Source: an uncultured Prevotellaceae bacterium
Lineage (GTDB): Bacteria; Bacteroidota; Bacteroidia; Bacteroidales; Muribaculaceae
NCBI GenBank assembly: GCA_946406035.1
Contig: CAMJJG010000005.1
Coordinates: forward strand, 16,900 to 80,899
Direction of reading: 5' to 3'
DNA: 64,000 nt
Position numbers and translations under genes: made by a program. Below the pieces are notes generated by a model that ran no database searches, was not told the origin of the DNA, and worked only from the letters and a program-made list of their open reading frames with translations. Of the stretch, positions 3,891-15,394 are shown one piece after another. The first letter of the stretch is position 1. The number at the start of each line of letters is the position of its first letter.

Positions 3891-3967
3891 CGACAGCATC
3901 AGGTCTTTTTCTCATCAGCCCCGCTGGGTTTTGGGCCAGCCGCTATGTCATTGACACGATTTTTGTG

Positions 3968-3975
3968 TACCTTTG
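3968..3975 (+). promoter_or_regulatory. Bacteroidetes -7 promoter element, 4 nt before the ATG (probable leaderless transcript)
   Basis: TACCTTTG-CGGC-ATG matches the TAnnTTTG consensus. Confidence 0.65.
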
Positions 3976-3979
3976 CGGC

Positions 3980-5710
3980 ATGAAGCACTTGTTGTGGAGC
4001 ATAGTGGCGACGATGGCGGTGCTCGTGGCGGCAGTCACGGGCTGCGGGCGCGCGCCGCGCTATGACGCGCGGCTGGTGGCCATCGACAGCCTCATGCACG
4101 ACGCCCCCGACAGCGCCCTGGCCCTTGTCCAGGCCATCGGCACCCTGCCCGCCCCGGCCGACCGCGCCTACCGCGACCTGCTGCTCACCCAGGCCCGCTA
4201 CCGCTGCTATGTCACCGCCACCAGCGACAGCGACATCAACCGGGCCCTAGCCTACTACCGCGCCCACAGCGGCGAGCGCGAGAAGCTCACCCGGGCATTC
4301 ATCTACAAGGGCGCCGTCATGGACGAGCTGGGACACCCCGACAGCGCCATGCTCTACTACAAGCACGCCGAAGCCACCGCCGCCCCCGACGACTACTTCA
4401 ACCTGGGATACGCCAAAATGAGAATCGGTGCCCTTTACCAGAATCAGTTCTCACAAGATAGTTCAGCTTTAAATGTGCTTCGCGAAGCAAAGCATTATTT
4501 TGAGATTCTTCGCGACACAAATTATATTATTGTAACACTCGGTAAACTAGGAGCAATCAACGGTATCATAAGACCTGATTCCACCAAACTCTTTTTTAGA
4601 GAGGCTATCAACTTGGCTCAACAATACAATCCCTCACTTCAGTACACATACAAATCAAAACTTGCGGGACTATACATTCATGAAGAGAACTATAAACAGG
4701 CCAAACAACTCGCTATGGATGTCATGATCAATGGAGCCGAGTACTGTGGGGAGAATCAATTCTACTTTTATGCATGTGAGGCATACCTTAAATTAGGATT
4801 CCCAGACTCGGCAAAGCATATCTTGGGTATTCTCCCAAAACTTGAAAACCCTGTAGATAGCATGAATTATTATAACACTATGGCTGAACTTGCCCTTTGG
4901 GACGGCAATAACAACGAATATGGGAAATACACCGAGCTGTCTAAAAAAATAACAACAAGAATCCTGTTATCAAAGAAAGAAAGTGTACTTACACAAGCTA
5001 ATAGAGAATTTGATAATCTGCAACATGAAAAAAGATCGCATAAACTTAAAAATAGTTTTGGTCTATTTATACTGATAACAACATTAGTTATCTTACTATT
5101 TTTAGGTGTATTATGCAGGTTAAAATATAAACTCCATCGCTTTGAAATTGAAAAGTCCAACATCTTGCGGGAAATGGAAACGACCATGATGGAATTGGCT
5201 GACCTCAAAGAAAAGCAGGAACTCAACACCCATCAGGAAGAACCAGCCTTAAACCAAATATCCGAGCTTGTGGGGTACCGAATATCTGCCATCAACGAGT
5301 TGTACGACGCGATTAGGATAAAGACAAATGAGGCTAGCGATAAGAGGAAATCTGTCATGCCGCTTTCTGGCTTGCTGAAAGAACTTAACGAGAAAAAACA
5401 ACTGCTCGAAATAAACCTGAGCGAATCATTCTGGGACAAAATGAAGATGTCGGTTGACGGTGAATATAATGGCATAGTTACTTTTGTCCAGAGCCAATAT
5501 CCCGAGTTGACCGACAATGACATCAAGCTCTTCTGCCTGCTGTGCGCTAACATTTCTCCACAGATCATCAGGCTTTGCATGAATTACACCAGTGACAAAA
5601 CTTCCAGCACCTATCGCAATCGCATCATACAAAAAAAGATGGGACTGGACATGACGTTTGACCAATTCATCAGCCGCTACATGAAAGGCGATTTCAACGA
5701 CAAGAATTGA
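3980..5710 (+). CDS. Membrane-spanning one-component regulator (lipobox, TPR-like sensor, TM helix, C-terminal LuxR-like HTH)
   Basis: Lipobox AVTGC; helical TPR-like repeats (DSALAL, DSAMLYYKHA); TM FGLFILITTLVILLFLGVL; C-terminal YPELTDNDIKLFCLLCANIS...TYRNRIIQKKMG. Confidence 0.75.
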   Translation: MKHLLWSIVATMAVLVAAVTGCGRAPRYDARLVAIDSLMHDAPDSALALVQAIGTLPAPADRAYRDLLLTQARYRCYVTATSDSDINRALAYYRAHSGEREKLTRAFIYKGAVMDELGHPDSAMLYYKHAEATAAPDDYFNLGYAKMRIGALYQNQFSQDSSALNVLREAKHYFEILRDTNYIIVTLGKLGAINGIIRPDSTKLFFREAINLAQQYNPSLQYTYKSKLAGLYIHEENYKQAKQLAMDVMINGAEYCGENQFYFYACEAYLKLGFPDSAKHILGILPKLENPVDSMNYYNTMAELALWDGNNNEYGKYTELSKKITTRILLSKKESVLTQANREFDNLQHEKRSHKLKNSFGLFILITTLVILLFLGVLCRLKYKLHRFEIEKSNILREMETTMMELADLKEKQELNTHQEEPALNQISELVGYRISAINELYDAIRIKTNEASDKRKSVMPLSGLLKELNEKKQLLEINLSESFWDKMKMSVDGEYNGIVTFVQSQYPELTDNDIKLFCLLCANISPQIIRLCMNYTSDKTSSTYRNRIIQKKMGLDMTFDQFISRYMKGDFNDKN

Positions 5711-5838: not shown

Positions 5839-5916
5839 CAAATGCTTTAGACTAGAAAATTGATTTTTACACTTTATTGAATCCATAATTATTAACTTAT
5901 TAAAATGTTTTTGCTC

Positions 5917-6816
5917 ATGAAAAAGACTTTACTAATTTCAATTCTGGCCCTGCTGGGCATGACCCAAGCAGTGGCGCAGGATGCCTATCCTCTCCTGCCG
6001 ATGGTGCAGGAAGGGAAGAAGTGGGTGAACGAGAAAGTGGTCATCAATCACGGTGACACTGTGTATAATTACTATACCTACGAGATAACTGGCAAGGTCC
6101 AGAACATCTTATATCCACTCACAGAGAGCACGATGATATGTCAGTACTACGAAGGTGCATCCAGGGAAATGACAAACGATAGCATCATATGTTACCTAGA
6201 AGAAAATGATTTCTCTGATGTAGACTGTTTTTTTAATCTTGCGCTTGATAGAGTTGAGAATGAAGGTCGTAATTTGATTAAACGCATCGAATACGTGAGT
6301 TCAGAGCATAGAGAGGCGTTGTATTTTCTGAATCGCTGGCATCATTACTATCTACCCGATGGATTACCTGGGCTCTACATCGAGTATCAACTTGAGCCTT
6401 TTCTTACCGAAGAGAATTTCTACCAAGTTGAATCCATTGATATTGAGGGATATGATTGCCACCGTTATGCCCATGTTGATCAAGAGGGCAACATCATTTG
6501 CTATTTGGTCGAGGGCATCGGCTTTGACAGCCGTGACATGGGCGACCTGCTGACGCCATTCACCCGCAAGCCAGACCCCGATGCCGACTACCAGGAGTAC
6601 TGGGGATTGAGCCACGTCATCAAGGATGGCAAGATCATCTACAAGGGCATGAGATACAACGAGGATCACCTGAGCGCCGTGGGCGAGGTGGCTGCCGACA
6701 GCCAACGCGCTGGCGACGCCAACTACTACAACCTCATGGGCCAGCCCGTAGGCAAGGATGTGCCCACCACCCCGGGCATCTACATCCACCAGGGCAAAAA
6801 AATCATCGTCAGATAA
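5917..6816 (+). CDS. Secreted hypothetical protein with T9SS-like C-terminal sorting domain, paralogue 1
   Basis: Signal peptide MKKTLLISILALLGMTQAVA; C-terminus YYNLMGQPV...PGIYIHQGKKIIVR. Confidence 0.8.
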   Translation: MKKTLLISILALLGMTQAVAQDAYPLLPMVQEGKKWVNEKVVINHGDTVYNYYTYEITGKVQNILYPLTESTMICQYYEGASREMTNDSIICYLEENDFSDVDCFFNLALDRVENEGRNLIKRIEYVSSEHREALYFLNRWHHYYLPDGLPGLYIEYQLEPFLTEENFYQVESIDIEGYDCHRYAHVDQEGNIICYLVEGIGFDSRDMGDLLTPFTRKPDPDADYQEYWGLSHVIKDGKIIYKGMRYNEDHLSAVGEVAADSQRAGDANYYNLMGQPVGKDVPTTPGIYIHQGKKIIVR

Positions 6817-7740
6817 ATAACACTTTAAGACTATTCAAACATGAAAAAGACATTTTTTTTACTATTATTTGGTTTTCTAGGCATTTTGCAGGGTATGTCT
6901 TATCCGACACATTGCGTTCGTCTGGTAGAGGAAGGGATGAAATGGGTGAACGAGAAAGTCATCATCAATCATGGCGATACAACATATAGTTACTACACCT
7001 ATGAGATTACAGGCGAAGATGTGCCCGAAAAATATAGCCTTTTTAACCCCTCTGGCACGAAAGCTTGCCACTACTATACGGGGTCACAGATAGATCCAGA
7101 AAACGACAGCATTGTCAGTTATCTGATTCAGTGGGATTGGAACGTTGGTTACTCTCTCAATAGAGTTCAGGCAAAAACCGAAAGAGAGGGCCGCAATCTA
7201 TTGGAAGTGGTATGGTATATGACTGAACCCAACTTTTTCGGGACGACATATTACGACCTATATTATTGTCTCCCACCTGCAGATGTTAATATTGGTCAAT
7301 ACTTATTTCATCAAATCGATTCTGTATTGAATGAGGATAATTTCATTGAAGTTGATCCCGTTGAGATTGAGGGCGAAACCTGCCAGCGCTTAGCACACGT
7401 GAACGAGGAGGGCGAAGTCCTGTTCTACGTCGTTGAGGGGATCGGCTTTGACAGCCGAGACATGGGAGACTTGCTGTCGCCGTTTTTGCGTCAGCCCGAC
7501 CCCGATGCCGACTACCAGGAGTATTGGGGATTGAGCCACGTCATCAAGGATGGCAAGATCATCTACAAGGGCATGAGATACAACGAGGATCACCTGAGCG
7601 CCGTGGGCGAGGTGGCTGCCGACAGCCAACGCGCTGGCGACGCCAACTACTACAACCTCATGGGCCAGCCCGTAGGTAAGGATGTGCCCACCACATCAGG
7701 CATCTACATCCACCAGGGCAAGAAAATCATCGTCAGATAA
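6574..7740 (+). repeat. 243-bp direct repeat (6574-6816 and 7498-7740) forming the 3' ends of both paralogues
   Basis: Manual alignment gives 6 mismatches in 243 bp. Confidence 0.9.
6841..7740 (+). CDS. Secreted hypothetical protein with T9SS-like C-terminal sorting domain, paralogue 2
   Basis: Shares EGxKWVNEKVxINHGDT and EGIGFDSRDMGDLL...KIIVR with the upstream gene; central part divergent. Confidence 0.8.
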   Translation: MKKTFFLLLFGFLGILQGMSYPTHCVRLVEEGMKWVNEKVIINHGDTTYSYYTYEITGEDVPEKYSLFNPSGTKACHYYTGSQIDPENDSIVSYLIQWDWNVGYSLNRVQAKTEREGRNLLEVVWYMTEPNFFGTTYYDLYYCLPPADVNIGQYLFHQIDSVLNEDNFIEVDPVEIEGETCQRLAHVNEEGEVLFYVVEGIGFDSRDMGDLLSPFLRQPDPDADYQEYWGLSHVIKDGKIIYKGMRYNEDHLSAVGEVAADSQRAGDANYYNLMGQPVGKDVPTTSGIYIHQGKKIIVR

Positions 7741-7770: not shown

Positions 7771-7803
7771 ACTGCCCGCAGGCCTTAAAAGCCCGCGGGC
7801 AGT
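7771..7803. terminator. Hairpin between convergent genes, probable bidirectional terminator
   Basis: ACTGCCCGCAGGC-loop-GCCCGCGGGCAGT. Confidence 0.7.
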
Positions 7804-7854: not shown

Positions 7855-9219
7855 TCAATACACAACCTCTATCAGGCGGGGGTCATCGTTGCTGATCGAG
7901 GTGTAGCCATCGGCAATGGTGAGGACGCCCTCGACATCAAGGGCCTTGCCGTTGACGGCACAACTGTAGAACGAGCCGCCCTGGATGGTGCAGTCGGTGT
8001 CACACTTCACACCCTTGGGGGCGACAGACGTCTGCTTGCCCGTGCACACCACGTTTAACTCGCCGCCGCCGAACACCAGGGGCTGCGCCACGTTGATGCC
8101 CTTGGCATCATCGCCAGTGCTCTTGATGTTGAGCGTGCCGCCCGTCATGGTCATGTTATAGTCGCTCTTGACACCCGCAGCGCCCGTCGACACGGCATTG
8201 CCCATCTCGTCGGTCTCGAGCCGCGTCGTGCCCGTGTTAATAATCGTGGTGCGGCCTCCCGTGATATAGACCAGGCTATCGCAGTTGATGCCCTTGGCGC
8301 CATCGGCAGCAATCTCCATGTTGATGACGCCGCCCTTGATGTGCACATAGTCCTTACCCTTGATGCCGTGACCGCTCGTGCTGTTCAGGTAGAGCCGGCA
8401 GCCCGGGCGCACCAGAACATAGTCGTCGCTGGTGATGCAGTTCTTGCCCACGCTATACACGTTGAGCGTACCCTTGCCGCTGACCAGTATCTGCCCCTCG
8501 CTGAAGAGGGCCGCCTTCTGGTCCTCGGCATCGACCATCGAGTAGGTCGCGCCGTCGCGCAGGGTGTTCTCCGTGCCCTCGTTGACCACCAGATAGAGCG
8601 ACTTGCCGCACTGGTTGTTGATGGCAGCGCCATTGGGATTGGTGATGTCCACGCCATTGAGCTGCAGCTGGAACTTGCGCTCGCTATAGAACTTGATCGA
8701 TCCGTTGGCAGTGGTACCGGTCACGATATAGCGCACGCGCTTGGCCACGCTGGTGATCGTCACGTGGGCGCCGTCCACACTGGCGACGACCGTGGTGGGA
8801 TTGCCCGTCACGGTAGCCGTCTCGCCATTAAAGGCGATGTTAACCGTTGTCACCCACACGGTGTTTTCCACATAGTCGCCATAGTCCACCGCATCCTCGT
8901 CGTCGGGAATCGACTCGGCAGGCTCGGTCAAGGCGCTATAGTCCAGATTGATCTCACGCGGCGTCAACTCATCCTCGTCGCCACCGCCCAGGATGATGTC
9001 TATCACAATATTGATGTCACTGATGTTGACCTCGCCATCCTGGTTCACATCGGCCGCCGTGTTCGCGCCGCCGCTCAGGATCGCGTCGATCACGGCATTA
9101 ACGTCGGTAATGTTCACCTCGCCATCCAGGTTCACGTCCCCGGTCTTGGCTCCGGCGCCCAGTCCGACCATCATGGCCAATAAAACAAAACAAAATTTTC
9201 TCATAGTAGCTGTTTTCAT
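7855..9219 (-). CDS. Secreted dockerin-like domain + Cthe_2159/DUF4353-like beta-helix carbohydrate-binding domain protein
   Basis: Signal peptide; duplicated GDVNLDGEVNITDV / ADVNQDGEVNISDI Ca-binding loops; LNGVDITNPNGAAIN, KAALFSEGQI and GG-rich beta-helix repeats. Confidence 0.8.
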   Translation of the reverse strand: MKTATMRKFCFVLLAMMVGLGAGAKTGDVNLDGEVNITDVNAVIDAILSGGANTAADVNQDGEVNISDINIVIDIILGGGDEDELTPREINLDYSALTEPAESIPDDEDAVDYGDYVENTVWVTTVNIAFNGETATVTGNPTTVVASVDGAHVTITSVAKRVRYIVTGTTANGSIKFYSERKFQLQLNGVDITNPNGAAINNQCGKSLYLVVNEGTENTLRDGATYSMVDAEDQKAALFSEGQILVSGKGTLNVYSVGKNCITSDDYVLVRPGCRLYLNSTSGHGIKGKDYVHIKGGVINMEIAADGAKGINCDSLVYITGGRTTIINTGTTRLETDEMGNAVSTGAAGVKSDYNMTMTGGTLNIKSTGDDAKGINVAQPLVFGGGELNVVCTGKQTSVAPKGVKCDTDCTIQGGSFYSCAVNGKALDVEGVLTIADGYTSISNDDPRLIEVVY

Positions 9220-9240
9220 ATCGATTAAACATTATAATTC

Positions 9241-10461
9241 TCAATAAGCGATCGTCAGCGCCTTGGCTCCCGAGTCATAGGTCGTATAGCCAGGCGCAAC
9301 CGTCAGCGTCCCCGACACGTCCAGCGGGTCACTGCGGCGGCTGTAACTGTAGAAATACCCGCCGCCGATGCTCATGCTGCCGTCCACCTTCACGCCCTTG
9401 GGCTTCTTGACCTCTCTCGTGCCCGCGGCCACGGCCTGCAAGCTGCCGCCATCGAAGGCCACGTCCTGCTTGGCGTTGAGGCCCTTGCCGCCGTCGCCAG
9501 TGGCCTTGAGCTTGAGCGTGCCGCTGTTGACAACCAGCAGCGAGTCACAATACAGCGCGGCACAGGCGGCAGTGTCGGCCACGCCGTCAACCGTCTCGAT
9601 CCTGGTGTCGCCGCTGGCGATGGCCACCAGCCGGCCGCCGTTGACCTCCATCAGGCCACCACTGCGCATTCCCTTGGCGCCAGCACCCGTAGTCATGATG
9701 TTGATGGCGCCGCCGTCAACGATGATGCCGTCGTTGGCACGCAGGCCGTCGAGCGCGCTACTGCTAACGTTAATCTTCACTCCAGGACGAATGCGGATAT
9801 AGTCATCGCTGCGGATGCCTCCGCGACCCACGGCATTCACGTCGAGCCGGCCATGGCCGCTGAAGACGATCTGCCCCTCGCTGAAGAGGGCCGCCTTCTG
9901 GTCCTCGTCATCGACCAGGGTGTAATCGGTGCCATCCTGCAAGTGGTTGGTCGTACCCTGGGCCAGCACGACATACATCGTCTTGCCTCCCTGGTTGTTG
10001 ATGGCAGCACCCGTGGGATTGGTCATGTCAACGTTGTTGAGCATCAACTGCACGCGCTTGTCGCCATAGAGCTTCAACGAGCCATTGGCCGTCGAGCCGC
10101 TCACGACAATCTTTATCGGCCCCGACATGTTCAGCACCGTGGCATGGGCGCCACTAGTCTGCACGATAACCCCTGGCACCGCACCTGTCACCTCAACATC
10201 GTCGCCAGCGTATTTGAGCTCGATGACCTCGTTCCACGACGAGTTCTCAACATAGTCGTTATAGGCCTCATCATTCTCGTCGGTCACGGGCACGTCGGGC
10301 GCTTCGGCAAGGTCGCTGTAATCCAGTTCTATACTGGCTGGCTCGATCTGGTACTGGGCGATGATGTCGTCCATGTCGGTATCGTCATCCACACACGACA
10401 CCAGGCCCATGGCCATTGCCGTAAAAAGGACACTATATAATAAAAATAAAACCTTCTTCAT
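9241..10461 (-). CDS. Lipoprotein with Cthe_2159/DUF4353-like beta-helix domain
   Basis: Lipobox GLVSC followed by acidic VDDDTDMDD; paralogous to 7855-9219 (KAALFSEGQI, SDDYIRIRPG). Confidence 0.8.
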   Translation of the reverse strand: MKKVLFLLYSVLFTAMAMGLVSCVDDDTDMDDIIAQYQIEPASIELDYSDLAEAPDVPVTDENDEAYNDYVENSSWNEVIELKYAGDDVEVTGAVPGVIVQTSGAHATVLNMSGPIKIVVSGSTANGSLKLYGDKRVQLMLNNVDMTNPTGAAINNQGGKTMYVVLAQGTTNHLQDGTDYTLVDDEDQKAALFSEGQIVFSGHGRLDVNAVGRGGIRSDDYIRIRPGVKINVSSSALDGLRANDGIIVDGGAINIMTTGAGAKGMRSGGLMEVNGGRLVAIASGDTRIETVDGVADTAACAALYCDSLLVVNSGTLKLKATGDGGKGLNAKQDVAFDGGSLQAVAAGTREVKKPKGVKVDGSMSIGGGYFYSYSRRSDPLDVSGTLTVAPGYTTYDSGAKALTIAY

Positions 10462-10488
10462 AGTAGTATAAAGCATGCGGTATTATCG

Positions 10489-11229
10489 TTAAAACTTATA
10501 GGTATAGCCCATGCCCAGCATGTGGATGTTGGGCTCATCGCTGCTGCTGCCCGACAGCTGGTAGCGGTAATAGAGCGTGAACTCGTGCTTCTTCTTGATG
10601 CTGTGATCCACTCCGACGATGAATCGCGTCTTCTCCAGCTCGCGCGTACTGTGAAACTCCACGCTGGCATACGGGTCAAACTTGCACTTGGGGATATCCC
10701 ACGCCACCTGCAGACGACTGCGTAGCACGTTCTTGCCCTTGCCACGCACCTCATGGTCCTCCCACTCGGCGTTATCAAAGTCAAAATTGTCGATCACCCT
10801 CGAGCGGCGGTAGGTGTATTGCCAGCGCTCGCGCAGGCTCACTTCGACCCGCTGTATCTTGCGACTCGCCGTGAGCGACACGTTGAAGCGGTGCCGCACG
10901 CCCCAATAGCTGGGACGCCAGTTATTGTAGCTCACGCCGTCGTCCTGATAGGTGATTTCCTCGCGATTGTTGTCGATGAGCAGGTTATAGCCCGCACTGG
11001 CCTTGAGCCAGGGCAGCACTTTGTAGCTCACCGACGGGCCAAAGGACACGCGATCGGCTGTGCGGAAATTGTTACGAGAGCGGAATTCGACTTCAAAACC
11101 GGCACTCAGGGCTTTAGTGAACTTGTGAGAGGCCTCGGCACTAACCACAAGCCCGGCATCGTCGGCGTGCAACGATGTCGGGATGAGTGCGGCACTGATC
11201 AGTAGCAGCAATGCTGCCAGTTGGTTCAT
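10489..11229 (-). CDS. Outer-membrane beta-barrel protein, DUF2490-like
   Basis: Signal peptide; alternating amphipathic strands; SLRERWQYT, LRSRLQ, PYASVE motifs; C-terminal YTYKF. ATGA overlap with the upstream gene. Confidence 0.75.
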   Translation of the reverse strand: MNQLAALLLLISAALIPTSLHADDAGLVVSAEASHKFTKALSAGFEVEFRSRNNFRTADRVSFGPSVSYKVLPWLKASAGYNLLIDNNREEITYQDDGVSYNNWRPSYWGVRHRFNVSLTASRKIQRVEVSLRERWQYTYRRSRVIDNFDFDNAEWEDHEVRGKGKNVLRSRLQVAWDIPKCKFDPYASVEFHSTRELEKTRFIVGVDHSIKKKHEFTLYYRYQLSGSSSDEPNIHMLGMGYTYKF

Positions 11230-11957
11230 TTTACTTCTTGCCATTCGTATTTTGGTACTTTTAGTTCGTTATTCACGTGGCTCATTCCGCCACCATCGTT
11301 CTCATATTCGATCTTGAGGATGGCTGTGTCCTTGAGAAAGTCGATTGATCCGACACTCACTTTCGTGATATTCAACCCCGTGCGCTTGTGCAGATCCTCG
11401 ATCAGTTCTTCACGGCGCTCGGGAGTGATCAGTTCGATGCGGTCATACAGTATCAGCTTGCTCGAGATGTCGCCACGCAGCACAAATGTCTCAAACAACC
11501 AGATCAGGCATGCTATCGACAGGTTGGGGACCAGCAACTCGACCACGCTCAGCGAGTCGGCCAGAGCGTTGATCACCGACAGGCTGATCACGCCAAACAT
11601 GTAGGACATCTCGCGCACGGGGATCGTCTCGGTGCGATACCTCAGCACCCCGAAGATGGCAAACAGTCCCAGCGCAAAACCGATTTTCACCTTCACGCTG
11701 CCCAGCAGGTAAATAAGGAAGAAAATGCTCACGCTCAGCAACACGAGCGTGAAGAAATAGTCGCGGCGATGTGTCTTGCGGTAATAGAGGAAGTAGACAA
11801 TGAAGCACAGCATCACCATGAAGAAGCCAAACCTAATGAGCATCTCCATCACGCTGGAGGCATCTAGCCAGTGGAAATCGGGTCCGCTGGCGATAGCTCC
11901 TTGAACGACATCGACAGTCCCCTCTTCTAAGCCTGTTAAATCCTGTAAAAGTAACAT
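11226..11957 (-). CDS. Inner-membrane protein, DUF4956-like
   Basis: GFALGLFAIFGVLRYRTETIPVREMSY, four to five TM helices and a soluble C-terminal domain (DLHKRTGLNI). Confidence 0.85.
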   Translation of the reverse strand: MLLLQDLTGLEEGTVDVVQGAIASGPDFHWLDASSVMEMLIRFGFFMVMLCFIVYFLYYRKTHRRDYFFTLVLLSVSIFFLIYLLGSVKVKIGFALGLFAIFGVLRYRTETIPVREMSYMFGVISLSVINALADSLSVVELLVPNLSIACLIWLFETFVLRGDISSKLILYDRIELITPERREELIEDLHKRTGLNITKVSVGSIDFLKDTAILKIEYENDGGGMSHVNNELKVPKYEWQEVK

Positions 11958-11980
11958 AATATCATCTCTGTTTTTGGTAG

Positions 11981-12805
11981 TTAATAATCGTGACGTGTAT
12001 TTTTTGATTCTTGTTGATTAATGCGTCCCATCAAGCGCTCGATCATGTGCAGGCGTTCCTTGAAGTTGTTGCGCTTCAACCCCGGGTTGGTCAATGCCGA
12101 CCCCATGCAGTACTTGGAAAAACCGCTGGGCTTGATGCGCAACTCCCGCAACAGCCCCAGGATGGGCGACGGTTGCAGGCCGTCACGCTTGAGCTCAATG
12201 ATGACCAGCCCCGTCAAGTCGGCTTCCTTGCCCGTCACCAGGTTGTGGAAACGCAATCCCGTGTCGATGGTCAGGCGCTCGGTCTTGGCCTTGTTGACCA
12301 GCGTGATGCGGTTGAAGTGGTTCTCCAGATGCTCGCTCAACACCGTCGGGTCATAACGCAGGTGGCGGCGCAGGAAATCGTCATAGCTGCGGTACTGGGC
12401 ATCCTGGCGCTGGAACCTGATGCCGTGATCGGGGTTCAATGGGTCAAACCCCAGCATGTCCACACGTTTCTTCTTGGTGCGCCCATGATTGTTCTTGGTC
12501 TTCACCTCCAGGTAATTCAGGCCCGAGTCCACATAGGACCGGATGCGCAACTTCTGGCGCCCGGCATGGCCATTTTGGTGAACGATATACATGTTGTTGT
12601 CTGGCGTGTCAAAGTAGGCCGTGTAGTAACTCGCAATGCGTTTTCCCTCAATTTCCTGGGCACGGTAATCGTCGCGCGCTAGCATCAACAACAGCTTGAG
12701 CCGGTCAACCGTCGTGACAAACTTGGTATCAGTCCGGTTCATCAGTTTAATTCCACTCATTTCATCAAGTGTTATTGGGCTATATGTGTTGATGATGCTT
12801 TCCAT
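11981..12805 (-). CDS. VTC-domain (polyphosphate polymerase / CYTH-TTM tunnel fold) protein
   Basis: LMNRTDTKF, YFDT, RQKLRIRSY, LEVKTK, ERLTIDT, IIELK and FSKYC motifs. Confidence 0.88.
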   Translation of the reverse strand: MESIINTYSPITLDEMSGIKLMNRTDTKFVTTVDRLKLLLMLARDDYRAQEIEGKRIASYYTAYFDTPDNNMYIVHQNGHAGRQKLRIRSYVDSGLNYLEVKTKNNHGRTKKKRVDMLGFDPLNPDHGIRFQRQDAQYRSYDDFLRRHLRYDPTVLSEHLENHFNRITLVNKAKTERLTIDTGLRFHNLVTGKEADLTGLVIIELKRDGLQPSPILGLLRELRIKPSGFSKYCMGSALTNPGLKRNNFKERLHMIERLMGRINQQESKNTRHDY

Positions 12806-12949
12806 TGCGGTGCAAATATATCACTTTATTAACGAAAAACAATCTCATAGATTGTGATTTTTAAGCAAAAATCAGTCAATTATTAGAATAAATCAATCAA
12901 CCTCATAAAAATCAATCAAGAACGGTGTATAAATCGCCAATGCGGTCAT

Positions 12950-12979
12950 TTGTAACAGGTTTGTAATGTAATCATTACA
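12950..12979 (+). promoter_or_regulatory. Pho-box-like 11-bp-period direct repeat between divergent promoters
   Basis: TTGTAACAGGT-TTGTAAT with TGTAA at 12951, 12962 and 12967; -7 elements at 13000-13007 (+) and 12813-12820 (-). Confidence 0.55.
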
Positions 12980-13016
12980 CCCATGTGGAATATTTTTCCT
13001 ACATTTGCGACTGATT

Positions 13017-13703
13017 ATGAGAAGACAACAGATATTAGTAGTCGATGACGAGCGGGACCTGTGTGAGATTCTGCAATTCAATCTCACCAATGTGGGTTAT
13101 GTTGTGGATATCGCCAACTCTGGCGAGGAAGCGTTGAGAAAAGACATCTCGCGATATGACCTGCTGCTGCTCGATGTGATGATGCCAGGCATGTCAGGAT
13201 TTGGCGTGGCACGACATCTCAAGAACGACAAGGCGACAGCCTCTATCCCCATTATTTTCCTCACTGCTCTGGGCAGCGAGGCCGATGTGTTGCAAGGCTT
13301 TGAACTCGGGGCCGACGATTACATCTCCAAGCCCTTCTCAATCAAGGAGGTCAAGGCAAGGGTAAAGGCGGTGCTGGGACGCACCTCGACCGACGTCGAG
13401 CCCCAGCCCACCGTGCTGCAATACGAGGGGCTCAGACTTGACCTCATCAAGATGACCGTCAGCGTCGACAAGCAGCCCGTGTCGCTCACCAGAACCGAGT
13501 TTGACCTCTTGCGACTGCTGCTCGAGAACCGAGGGCAGGTTTTCTCGCGCCAGGAGGTCCTCGAGAGGGTGTGGCCCAGCGACGTCATCGTGACCAACCG
13601 CACCGTCGACGTCAACATCACCCGCATGCGCAAGAAAATCGGGCGATACTCTTCCTGCATCATTACCCGACATCGATTTGGATATCAATTCATCGGGGTA
13701 TGA
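13017..13703 (+). CDS. phoB: OmpR/PhoB-family response regulator (Bacteroides PhoB-like)
   Basis: ILVVDDERDLCEILQFNL, LLDVMMP, GADDYISKPF and winged helix RTVDVNITRMRKKIG. Confidence 0.8.
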   Translation: MRRQQILVVDDERDLCEILQFNLTNVGYVVDIANSGEEALRKDISRYDLLLLDVMMPGMSGFGVARHLKNDKATASIPIIFLTALGSEADVLQGFELGADDYISKPFSIKEVKARVKAVLGRTSTDVEPQPTVLQYEGLRLDLIKMTVSVDKQPVSLTRTEFDLLRLLLENRGQVFSRQEVLERVWPSDVIVTNRTVDVNITRMRKKIGRYSSCIITRHRFGYQFIGV

Positions 13704-14620
13704 AAAAGTTGACCGAGGGCAACAAGATGTTCTTGAGCGTAATGGTGGTGTTTATCCTTTACGCCTTGATTTTTATCGCCTTCGAGGATTACGACCGCAC
13801 GGTGCTTGAGCCACTTGACCAGACGAGCGACCTGCACCAGCTACTGTTCTCGCTCGTCGTCCTAGTGGGACTGGGATTCCTCTTGCACCGCTACGCCAGG
13901 CGCATGGATGAGCGCATCAGCCAGGAACAAGCCGACAAGCAGAACATCATGCGGCGGCAGCTCACCCAGAACATCTCCCACGAGCTCAAAACACCCATCG
14001 CGAGCATCCTGGGATATACCGAGACCATACTCGAGCATCCCGACATGAACGACGAGACTCGCACTCAGTTTCTGAAGCGCACATTGTCGCAGGCTCAACG
14101 ACTCACGTCATTACTGCAGGACATCTCAACGCTCAACCGCATGGACTATGCCACCGACATGATCAAGATGCAGTCCATCAATGTGGCCGATATCGTCAGC
14201 GAGGTGATACAGGAAACCGCACTCGCCGCCAGCAAAAAACACATCAACGTGATCAACTACCTGCCACAAAAGATTATAATCAACGGCAACCAATCGCTCA
14301 TCTACAGCATCTTCCGCAACCTCATCGATAACGCCATCAACTATGCGGGCAACGACACGACAATCAAAATTGACGTCCAGGAGAAATTCGACAAATGGTT
14401 GTTCACATTTGCCGACAACGGCGTCGGCATCGCTCAAGAGCACCTGACGCGCATCTTTGAGCGCTTCTACCGCATCGACAAGGGACGCAGCCGCTCGCTG
14501 GGAGGAACAGGACTGGGACTTGCCATTGTCAAGAACGCCGTCCTGCTGCACGGCGGCACAATCAAGGCCCTCCCCGCCCAGGGGGGGGGAATGTGCTTTG
14601 AGTTCTCGCTCAAGAAATAA
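13700..14620 (+). CDS. phoR: Sensor histidine kinase (PhoR-like)
   Basis: Two TM helices; RQLTQNISHELKTP H-box; NLIDNAINY, DNGVGI, FERFYRIDKGRSR, GGTGLGL. ATGA overlap with the regulator. Confidence 0.8.
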   Translation: MKKLTEGNKMFLSVMVVFILYALIFIAFEDYDRTVLEPLDQTSDLHQLLFSLVVLVGLGFLLHRYARRMDERISQEQADKQNIMRRQLTQNISHELKTPIASILGYTETILEHPDMNDETRTQFLKRTLSQAQRLTSLLQDISTLNRMDYATDMIKMQSINVADIVSEVIQETALAASKKHINVINYLPQKIIINGNQSLIYSIFRNLIDNAINYAGNDTTIKIDVQEKFDKWLFTFADNGVGIAQEHLTRIFERFYRIDKGRSRSLGGTGLGLAIVKNAVLLHGGTIKALPAQGGGMCFEFSLKK

Positions 14621-14719: not shown

Positions 14720-15394
14720 TTATCTGGCTGGAGCCATCTCGAAACCCAAACGCACTCCATCATACTGCTTGCTCAGGTCTCCCACAGTCTTCAACGTGCT
14801 GTTACCGCTAAGGGCAGCAACGGCCTGCAACACCTTCAACAGGTTCTTGCTCTCAAACGTCAAGGCCAAACCGCCTGCCGTGCGGGTCACATAGGCATTG
14901 GAGCTGAAAAGCATCGTCTTGAGCTTGATCGTGCCCGTCGAGGGATCATAGGTATAAGTTCCACTCAAGGGTATGCCCTTTACCTTGGCAGCAAACTGAT
15001 GATCTTGGGTGAACTGGAACTGCGTGTTCTGGGCGCTGATGCCCAGGGAATTGTAAACCGACTGCATTTTCTCTTTACAATTCTCGGCAGCAACCGCACC
15101 GCCGGCCTTGGCCAGCAGGTTCTCGCTCGTGAAGGCACAACCAGGCTCTGTATAGTACCATGACCCATAGAGCTCGCTCTCGCTCACCTTGACACTGCCT
15201 ATCACCAGCCCGAGCAAGCCGTCAACAGTGTTCTGTGAGCCCAGCACACCCAGCACCGAGCCCAACACGTTACCCAGCGTGCTATTGCCCGACTCGCCAC
15301 TCGTTCCTGACCCCAGGCCATTGAGTAAACCGGTCGTGCAACTTGAGCACACAAGCAGCATTGCAACAAACAATGTAGAATAAACCTTTTTCAT
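14720..15394 (-). CDS. Lipoprotein, DUF4923-like
   Basis: Lipobox CSSC, Gly/Leu-rich N-terminus, GSWYYTEPGCAFTSENLLAKAGG, and GVRLGFEM C-terminus. Confidence 0.7.
   Translation of the reverse strand: MKKVYSTLFVAMLLVCSSCTTGLLNGLGSGTSGESGNSTLGNVLGSVLGVLGSQNTVDGLLGLVIGSVKVSESELYGSWYYTEPGCAFTSENLLAKAGGAVAAENCKEKMQSVYNSLGISAQNTQFQFTQDHQFAAKVKGIPLSGTYTYDPSTGTIKLKTMLFSSNAYVTRTAGGLALTFESKNLLKVLQAVAALSGNSTLKTVGDLSKQYDGVRLGFEMAPAR

Follow-up and report, generated by a model that had tools for sequence, protein, structure and literature searches.

Related systems and the operon

The closest described relatives of the operon analysed here, a set of five genes on a 64,000-nt stretch of contig CAMJJG010000005.1 (GCA_946406035.1, positions 16,900–80,899; hereafter the window, with positions counted from its first letter), are the eukaryotic VTC complex (yeast Vtc4/Vtc3/Vtc1; PDB 3g3q, 7ytj, 8i6v; PMC9911596) and the Gram-positive pel loci, where cotH, a polyphosphate polymerase gene and a DUF4956 gene stand beside pel operons (10.1101/768473; Streptococcus intermedius SIR_1592–1594, PMC12345266). 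With the VTC complex the operon has in common a homologous TTM domain, the Vtc4 active-site residues and a small membrane partner. It differs in that its enzyme holds only the VTC domain, with neither an SPX sensor nor fused membrane helices, that its partner, for which no Vtc1 match was found, is MgtC-like, with five helices and an ACT-like domain, and that an outer-membrane barrel and surface proteins are added. We regard the operon as putatively VTC-like in function and not as a member of the eukaryotic complex. With the pel loci it shares the VTC and DUF4956 core and the link to secreted CotH proteins; unlike them it has no pel genes, its CotH genes lie elsewhere in the genome, and a DUF2490 and two Cthe_2159 genes are added. 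Passages of PMC12345266 (2025) report the three-gene arrangement at pel loci only, whereas VTC–DUF4956–CotH arrangements were also present outside pel loci in the genomes surveyed here.

The operon is real, conserved and uncharacterised, and the locus is an ordinary member of a widespread gene set whose core is already in print at pel loci. Its five genes, all on the minus strand, and a divergent PhoB/PhoR-like pair were found exactly where the original prediction had placed these seven open reading frames. The sources of close homologues label them Muribaculaceae, which places the host, a gut-type bacterium, among the Bacteroidales. Protein localisations given here and below are predictions from sequence.

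11981–12805, minus strand: VTC, Vtc4-type TTM enzyme, predicted polyphosphate polymerase (PF09359, E 1e-26; 274 aa, no signal peptide)
11226–11957, minus strand: DUF4956 predicted inner-membrane protein (PF16316, E 1e-51)
10489–11229, minus strand: DUF2490 predicted outer-membrane beta-barrel (PF10677, E 2e-28; C-terminal residue Phe)
9241–10461, minus strand: Cthe_2159 beta-helix predicted lipoprotein (PF14262, E 4e-41; LVS-C lipobox-like sequence, judged by eye; acidic N-terminus)
7855–9219, minus strand: predicted secreted protein with dockerin-like repeats and a Cthe_2159 beta-helix (PF00404, E 1e-9; PF14262, E 7e-43)

Intergenic gaps are 23, -4, 27 and 21 nt, with second ATGs (11229, 10461) taken as starts. 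Among 31 same-genus loci, VTC lies within 4.5 kb of DUF4956 in 30, the remaining one being cut by a contig end, and DUF2490 and Cthe_2159 genes are near VTC in 29 and 25, respectively; given these counts, the five-gene grouping is not due to chance. We tentatively read the operon as a bacterial VTC-like system for the synthesis and export of polyphosphate, a reading that could well hold but that we rate somewhat short of an even chance. To what is already published this locus adds a negative test of a PhoB link, a candidate LytTR-like operator and a census of CotH and polyphosphate kinases (PPK1 and PPK2).

An earlier statement that no functional characterisation exists stands only in part: the three homologues of the core genes have been deleted in S. 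intermedius, and the passages concerned contain no enzyme assay (PMC12345266). All three deletion strains still aggregated and made Pel; in one medium, aggregation fell by more than 50% on loss of either the DUF4956-like gene or cotH (PMC12345266), effects that by analogy count in favour of the export reading. Our literature search, outside which most subscription journals fell, found no paper that assays a bacterial VTC protein or describes the Bacteroidales operon (see also PMC13484657, PMC10657179 and PMC4227749). Passages of a 2026 preprint report PPK-independent extracellular polyphosphate in Bacillus cereus and state that a VTC4 homologue is absent there.

The Vtc4-type enzyme

A PDB search with the single VTC sequence from the window gave no match. 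A profile built from 73 Bacteroidota homologues matched ten PDB sequences at E ≤ 1, all of them Vtc2, Vtc3 or Vtc4 (best Vtc4, 3g3q, E 4.9e-22) and none a hydrolase-type TTM protein. Residue equivalences were counted from the printed profile alignment, with conservation taken over its 73 rows: R24, K28, R87, R89 and K102 of the window protein correspond to Vtc4 R196, K200, R264, R266 and K281, and K112, R166, E204, K206 and K231 to Vtc4 K294, R361, E426, K428 and K458, each in 72–73 of the 73 rows. K200, K281, R361, K428 and K458 of Vtc4 are tunnel residues. The motif of TTM hydrolases is ExExK, and its first position is here occupied by an arginine, R24 (72 of 73 rows). Replacement of R264, R266 or E426 of Vtc4 inactivates yeast VTC (PMC9911596). 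The original prediction of a VTC-type enzyme is borne out and narrowed by the profile matches and the residue alignment: the protein is a homologue of the Vtc4 polymerase rather than a generic TTM protein, with the catalytic residues retained, and is itself predicted to be a polyphosphate polymerase. The Vtc4 TTM domain is slow in isolation and needs coupling to the membrane (PMC9911596), which fits the tight pairing of VTC with DUF4956. Longer forms of the VTC protein were not found in our search, which is weak evidence.

The DUF4956 membrane partner

An AlphaFold model of the DUF4956 protein (mean pLDDT 86.7) has five long predicted membrane helices and a C-terminal ACT-like domain. Foldseek searches with this model returned generic helical bundles and weak ACT-domain hits, all at E > 0.1, and an Atlas search from a homologue gave no usable match. 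Residues R106 and R108 are invariant in 87 of 87 DUF4956 sequences. The family resembles MgtC/SapB (PF02308) in a weak profile similarity of its membrane part and in the C-terminal ACT-like domain; a PF02308 match (E ≤ 0.05) was obtained for 22 of the 87 members (best E 6e-6) and not for the window protein itself, and unlike MgtC/SapB the family has an invariant RYR motif and a dedicated pairing with VTC. Vtc1 did not appear for DUF4956 in the Pfam, PDB profile, Foldseek or VIA searches, a result still compatible with a remote fold relation. Because of the MgtC matches and the missing Vtc1 match, DUF4956 is at best a functional stand-in for the yeast channel, and the description of the operon as a split VTC complex overstated homology. 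A complex predicted from two DUF4956 copies and VTC scored 0.20 (mark 0.32), which carries no weight for or against binding.

Gene fusions were considered as evidence of coupling and set aside. The eight long proteins scanned included one VTC–DUF4956 and one DUF4956–CotH fusion, both in single-member clusters. DUF4956–DUF2490 read-through fusions (cluster P0248 with 36 members, P0291 and P0332) keep an internal signal-peptide-like stretch, and so may have arisen by stop loss.

The predicted outer-membrane and surface proteins

Passages of 10.64898/2026.07.29.741452 describe the DUF2490 family as an outer-membrane barrel. Across 43 DUF2490 sequences, 13 conserved positions are basic and four acidic, several of the basic ones in alternating R-x-R pairs. 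The Cthe_2159 proteins have a conserved ladder of Lys/Arg together with Asp residues (50 sequences). The two encoded in the operon are paralogues, with 44% identity across 358 aa, and the lipoprotein matches the lyase-like beta-helix Cthe_2159 itself (PDB 4peu, E 1.2e-10; family PF14262), whose ligands are given as cellulose and polygalacturonate in work cited in 10.1101/401869; the genomic setting of the operon would suggest a phosphate polymer. The conserved basic residues of the barrel and of the beta-helix proteins would fit the handling of an anion, whose identity they do not indicate.

Distribution of the VTC–DUF4956 pair

From the phylum Bacteroidota we drew 200 genomes, of which 64 encode DUF4956, 33 VTC (all within the 64), 80 CotH and 170 PPK1. 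The 69 DUF4956 places in this draw supplied 40 loci, and other families within the order contributed 15 more. In these 55 loci outside the genus, VTC lies within 4 kb of DUF4956 in 43, and the further neighbours are an adaptor-type (HlyD-like) gene (n = 22), DUF2490 (n = 15, two doubtful), CotH (n = 7) and Cthe_2159 (n = 4), with a phosphate-selective porin as partner in locus L091. The pair also stands within 4 kb in 80 of 80 Streptomyces loci and in all seven plasmid records examined (7 of 17 matches; one has a VTC fragment only), and recurs in Deinococcus, Alphaproteobacteria, Pseudoalteromonas (VTC fragment) and actinobacteria. The control genomes of Bacteroides thetaiotaomicron, Corynebacterium glutamicum and Methanosarcina acetivorans each gave VTC, DUF4956 and CotH matches; for the first of these, PMC10434189 lists the DUF4956 and DUF2490 genes with the values -7.6 and 0.175. 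VTC was never seen without DUF4956 among the genomes searched, and the two are immediate neighbours. Since this pair recurs across phyla with varying partners, we define the core as VTC plus DUF4956, a cross-phylum unit with exchangeable envelope partners (DUF2490 barrel, adaptor, porin, CotH, Cthe_2159). The survey across the genus, Bacteroidota, Streptomyces and other phyla thus supports the earlier expectation that the gene association is widespread.

Four actinobacterial loci (L227–L230 in G302, G332, G387 and G317) repeat the layout of the window in another phylum: VTC, DUF4956 and Cthe_2159 genes are divergent from an OmpR-type two-component system, of which the regulator was found in three and the kinase in four. 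This system is closest to RppAB, below the cut-off, and is not PhoB. In G317 both VTC and Cthe_2159 are in pieces.

Three further patterns were seen. In genomes without VTC, DUF4956 is followed at five loci (L082, L083, L086, L088, L079) by an adaptor-type gene and a conserved 410-aa gene with no Pfam match. In family f49, 24 of 26 DUF4956-positive genomes have no VTC, yet have CotH and mostly PPK1. Just 5' of VTC in other Bacteroidales (L031, L032, L054, L064) lies a conserved gene of 133–142 aa with no Pfam match.

CotH kinases and polyphosphate kinases

A genome-level link to CotH kinases had been overlooked by the earlier neighbourhood claim, whose part on gene co-occurrence stands and whose part on phoBR does not (see below). 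Within the genus (37 genomes), all 32 operon-bearing genomes have 3–18 CotH matches, and of the five genomes without the operon three have none and the others two and five. The genome assembly of the window (G000, 75% complete) encodes 11 CotH kinases, all with a signal-peptide-like start as judged by eye and several with dockerin-like repeats. Of the phylum genomes drawn, all 33 with VTC encode CotH, versus 47 of the 167 without it; for DUF4956 the corresponding counts are 61 of 64 genomes with it and 19 of 136 lacking it. Among the genomes with DUF4956 and no VTC, 28 of 31 have CotH. A second, independent draw of 150 actinobacterial genomes gave CotH in 6 of 10 VTC-positive genomes versus 5 of 140 others; in five of the six it lies within about 3 kb of VTC, and in each of the four VTC genomes that have no CotH a Cthe_2159 gene stands immediately after DUF4956. 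The notion of CotH as an obligatory partner is ruled out by the actinobacterial count and by the Streptomyces loci (see below). Examples of CotH genes in the window's assembly are C35:17955–19580, C6:10806–12221 and C22:12618–16249; in relatives they are often in tandem. The dockerin-like pattern is matched by at least 38 open reading frames of the same assembly.

PPK1 was found in none of the 32 operon-bearing genus genomes and in one of the five without the operon, and PPK2 in none of the 37. The VTC enzyme is therefore the sole recognisable candidate polyphosphate synthase of those 32 genomes. Replacement of PPK1 by VTC was rejected as a general rule, since both are present in 30 of the 33 VTC-positive phylum genomes.

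A putative route of polyphosphate synthesis and export, and its alternatives

In the scheme that we favour, the cytoplasmic Vtc4-type enzyme would polymerise polyphosphate from ATP, DUF4956 would carry the growing chain through the inner membrane, perhaps within a physical complex, the basic DUF2490 barrel would then let it out through the outer membrane, and at the surface the polymer would be bound by the two exported beta-helix proteins. The polymer would most likely serve as a phosphoryl or energy donor for the 11 CotH kinases, or as a cation-binding surface coat. If true, this would give bacteria a VTC-like means of producing and secreting polyphosphate, and would bear on where their extracellular polyphosphate comes from; it would also suggest a phosphate donor for the secreted CotH kinases of non-sporulating bacteria, and roles for the three families DUF4956, DUF2490 and Cthe_2159. 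A bolder joint proposition seems doubtful to us: that the operon is a third, PPK-independent bacterial polyphosphate route that builds the chain into its export path, that the exported polymer is the phosphoryl donor of secreted CotH kinases where ATP is scarce, so that one operon powers about ten surface kinases in this gut lineage, and that Cthe_2159 proteins bind or cleave polyphosphate and do not bind carbohydrate.

Several observations weigh against synthesis and export. DUF4956 appears MgtC-like, and its sole invariant basic residues form one R-x-R at a membrane-helix end, so that any pore is hypothetical. The window enzyme differs from Vtc4 at two positions (Y359 to Phe, R253 to His). 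VTC gave no match in 31 of the 64 phylum genomes that encode DUF4956, and two of these (G193, G257) have DUF4956 and CotH with neither VTC nor PPK1 (PPK2 lay outside that check); DUF4956 can thus act without the VTC enzyme. PPK1 also occurs in 30 of the 33 VTC-positive phylum genomes. The Streptomyces pair stands without conserved partners, and CotH was found in none of the 80 Streptomyces loci, nor in the one whole Streptomyces genome searched. The co-occurrence counts were taken among kin, which overstates their independence, and the Fisher values computed from them are correspondingly too strong. In S. intermedius the VTC-gene deletion strain aggregated and is not singled out as reduced in the passages concerned, and deletions of the DUF4956-like gene and of cotH shifted Pel levels in opposite directions (PMC12345266).

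Transport could run the other way. The beta-helix proteins would then bind polyphosphate, or a different phosphorylated polyanion, at the surface; import would proceed through the barrel and DUF4956, and the TTM enzyme would degrade the polymer or use it to remake ATP. Phosphate-uptake genes do neighbour the pair elsewhere (the porin in L091, a phosphate transporter and phytase-like genes in L094 and L095, phnCDE in L092), the operon is head-to-head with a Na/Pi cotransporter–phoBR unit in three close relatives, and PstC was found in none of the 37 genus genomes. We nevertheless consider such scavenging unlikely: the operon's own promoter lacks a Pho box (0 of 26 loci, see below), efflux-type adaptor genes are present in 22 of the 55 loci, Vtc4, which the enzyme matches, is a polymerase, the first position of the hydrolase motif ExExK is Arg (R24), and the co-occurrence with CotH is left without explanation.

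Rather improbable, in our view, is a role in signalling, in which an MgtC-like DUF4956 with a ligand-binding ACT-like domain and a TTM enzyme that makes or removes a small phosphorylated signal would tune envelope proteins such as CotH or a histidine kinase, with no polymer exported. Salmonella MgtC, which acts by binding PhoR (PMC6658541), is a precedent, and the MgtC matches of 22 of 87 DUF4956 members, the 31 genomes with DUF4956 and no VTC, and the flanking two-component pairs (LytS/LytTR in four genus loci, divergent OmpR-type in the four actinobacterial Cthe_2159 loci) fit the idea. It accounts neither for a dedicated basic outer-membrane barrel nor for adaptors translationally coupled to DUF4956, and the full Vtc4 tunnel is kept in the enzyme.

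More improbable still is the proposal that DUF4956 and its barrel or adaptor export ATP or another small phosphoryl donor for CotH, with VTC as a dispensable helper enzyme to regenerate or alter that donor. DUF4956 does track CotH with or without VTC (61 of 64; 28 of 31 without VTC), and G193 has a DUF4956–DUF2490 pair facing cotH with neither VTC nor PPK1; against this, VTC is never without DUF4956, its immediate neighbour, in the genomes searched, and Streptomyces retains the pair without CotH. Least probable of all is a membrane-anchored PPK1 substitute that stores polyphosphate in the cell or periplasm, with the barrel and beta-helix genes as unrelated passengers, which would suit the missing PPK1 and PPK2 of the 32 operon-bearing genus genomes and the sole PPK1-positive genome, which has no operon, but not the presence of PPK1 in 30 of the 33 phylum genomes with VTC and in 9 of 15 order-level genomes with DUF4956, nor the conservation of DUF2490 and Cthe_2159 as neighbours, the latter in two phyla.

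The phoBR neighbour and regulation of the operon

Upstream of VTC and at the end of the operon, the following features were recognised:

12813–12820, minus strand: -7 promoter-like element TATATTTG just 5' of the VTC start, present upstream of VTC in 25 of 31 same-genus sequences
12871–12900, minus strand: 9-12-9 direct repeat TTGATTGAT N12 TTGACTGAT, a candidate LytTR-like operator, in 18 of 31 upstream regions
12950–12967, plus strand: Pho-box-like tandem repeat TTGTAAC N4 TTGTAAT, part of the phoB promoter, 32 bp before the phoB -7 element
13000–13007, plus strand: phoB -7 element
13017–13703, plus strand: PhoB response regulator (NF053854, 320 bits, cut-off 270), a neighbour outside the conserved system
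13700–14620, plus strand: short PhoR-like histidine kinase, 306 aa (HisKA and HATPase_c; NF053855, 343 bits, cut-off 500)
7771–7803, minus strand: terminator-like hairpin with a 15-bp stem at the operon end (pattern match only)

The -7 promoter-like element before VTC follows the Bacteroidota -7 consensus, TAnnTTTG. By score the response regulator exceeds the cut-off of the Bacteroidetes model for PhoB, NF053854, and the kinase stays below that of its closest model, PhoR (NF053855), of which it matches only residues 353–583. In a scan of 30 chosen neighbours, 18 of 25 loci with a PhoB orthologue have a Na/Pi, PHO4 or PhoU gene beside it. The pair appears to be a genuine PhoBR. It resembles the Bacteroides fragilis PhoBR regulon (PMC3547664) in that the PhoB model is passed and orthologues adjoin phosphate transporters, and differs in the short kinase of the window, in a genus in which PstC and PPK2 were not found and PPK1 only once, and in an operon without a Pho box of its own. 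PhoBR of the genus appears to be tied to Na/Pi cotransporters and PHO4-type transporters rather than to Pst.

The original prediction had called the operon PhoBR-linked, which does not agree with the distribution of phoBR. Besides the window, five of 31 relatives have it next to the operon, and all of these belong to a single shallow clade of 14 members; four of the five have divergent phoBR (three with a Na/Pi cotransporter between) and one a co-directional pair at 51% identity. Several relatives' loci end at contig breaks upstream of the operon. Outside the genus, a PhoB-like gene lies within 4 kb in 1 of 55 loci. The repeat TTGTAAY-N4-TTGTAAY precedes 10 of 11 phosphate-transporter genes, and in the window's assembly a Pho-box-like repeat stands before phoB (the top genome-wide match) and before a Na/Pi cotransporter paralogue on C33. 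It is present in the shared spacer of five of five loci with a divergent phoB or nptA–phoB unit, and no Pho box was found at the operon's own promoter in the 26 loci without such a unit. The repeat of the window faces phoB and belongs to the phoB promoter. Within the 200-bp spacer that the two units share, PhoB may act on the operon by cross-talk. As a neighbour of the operon, this phosphate regulator is probably no more than a bystander.

The 9-12-9 direct repeat was found in 18 of 31 operon upstream regions, 12 of which have no adjacent phoBR, with a consensus derived from the same sequences in which it was counted. A period of 21 occurs in 18 of 31 regions versus at most three at any other period from 17 to 25, and shuffled sequences gave a mean of 0.04. 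In 18 of 18 cases the repeat precedes the -7 element by 28, 39 or 49–51 bp, distances that grow by about one helical turn at a time. This layout, phased to the -7 element, matches that of LytTR sites (PMC4847170), in which two 9–11-nt repeats separated by 11–13 nt stand ahead of the promoter. Four genus loci carry a LytS/LytTR pair after the operon, of which only L049 reached the repeat threshold, and the orthologue in the window's assembly is at C7:5449–6192. Expression of the operon is probably set by a LytTR-type regulator through this candidate operator, and not by PhoB. The second-best genome match of the repeat matrix, at C13:18520 near an orphan LytTR gene, was discarded, as it has no -7 element at the expected distance. 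Contigs of sheep-gut metatranscriptomes cover parts of the region, some of them near-identical, and are uninformative on transcription, strand or level.

Neighbouring genes

A DUF4923 lipoprotein gene (14720–15394, minus strand) follows phoBR in the window. In seven relatives without the phoBR insertion it is directly upstream of VTC, from which we conclude that phoBR sits between the DUF4923 and VTC genes. Convergent with the operon are two genes for secreted paralogues (5905–6816 and 6841–7740, plus strand), which have nearly identical C-terminal halves and no match in Pfam or NCBIfam. They are preceded by a low-GC gene (3965–5710, plus strand) for a 581-aa protein, predicted to be a lipoprotein or a membrane regulator and without a Pfam match, and an open reading frame elsewhere in the assembly (G000:C7:1002–1523) shares a near-identical N-terminus with this protein.

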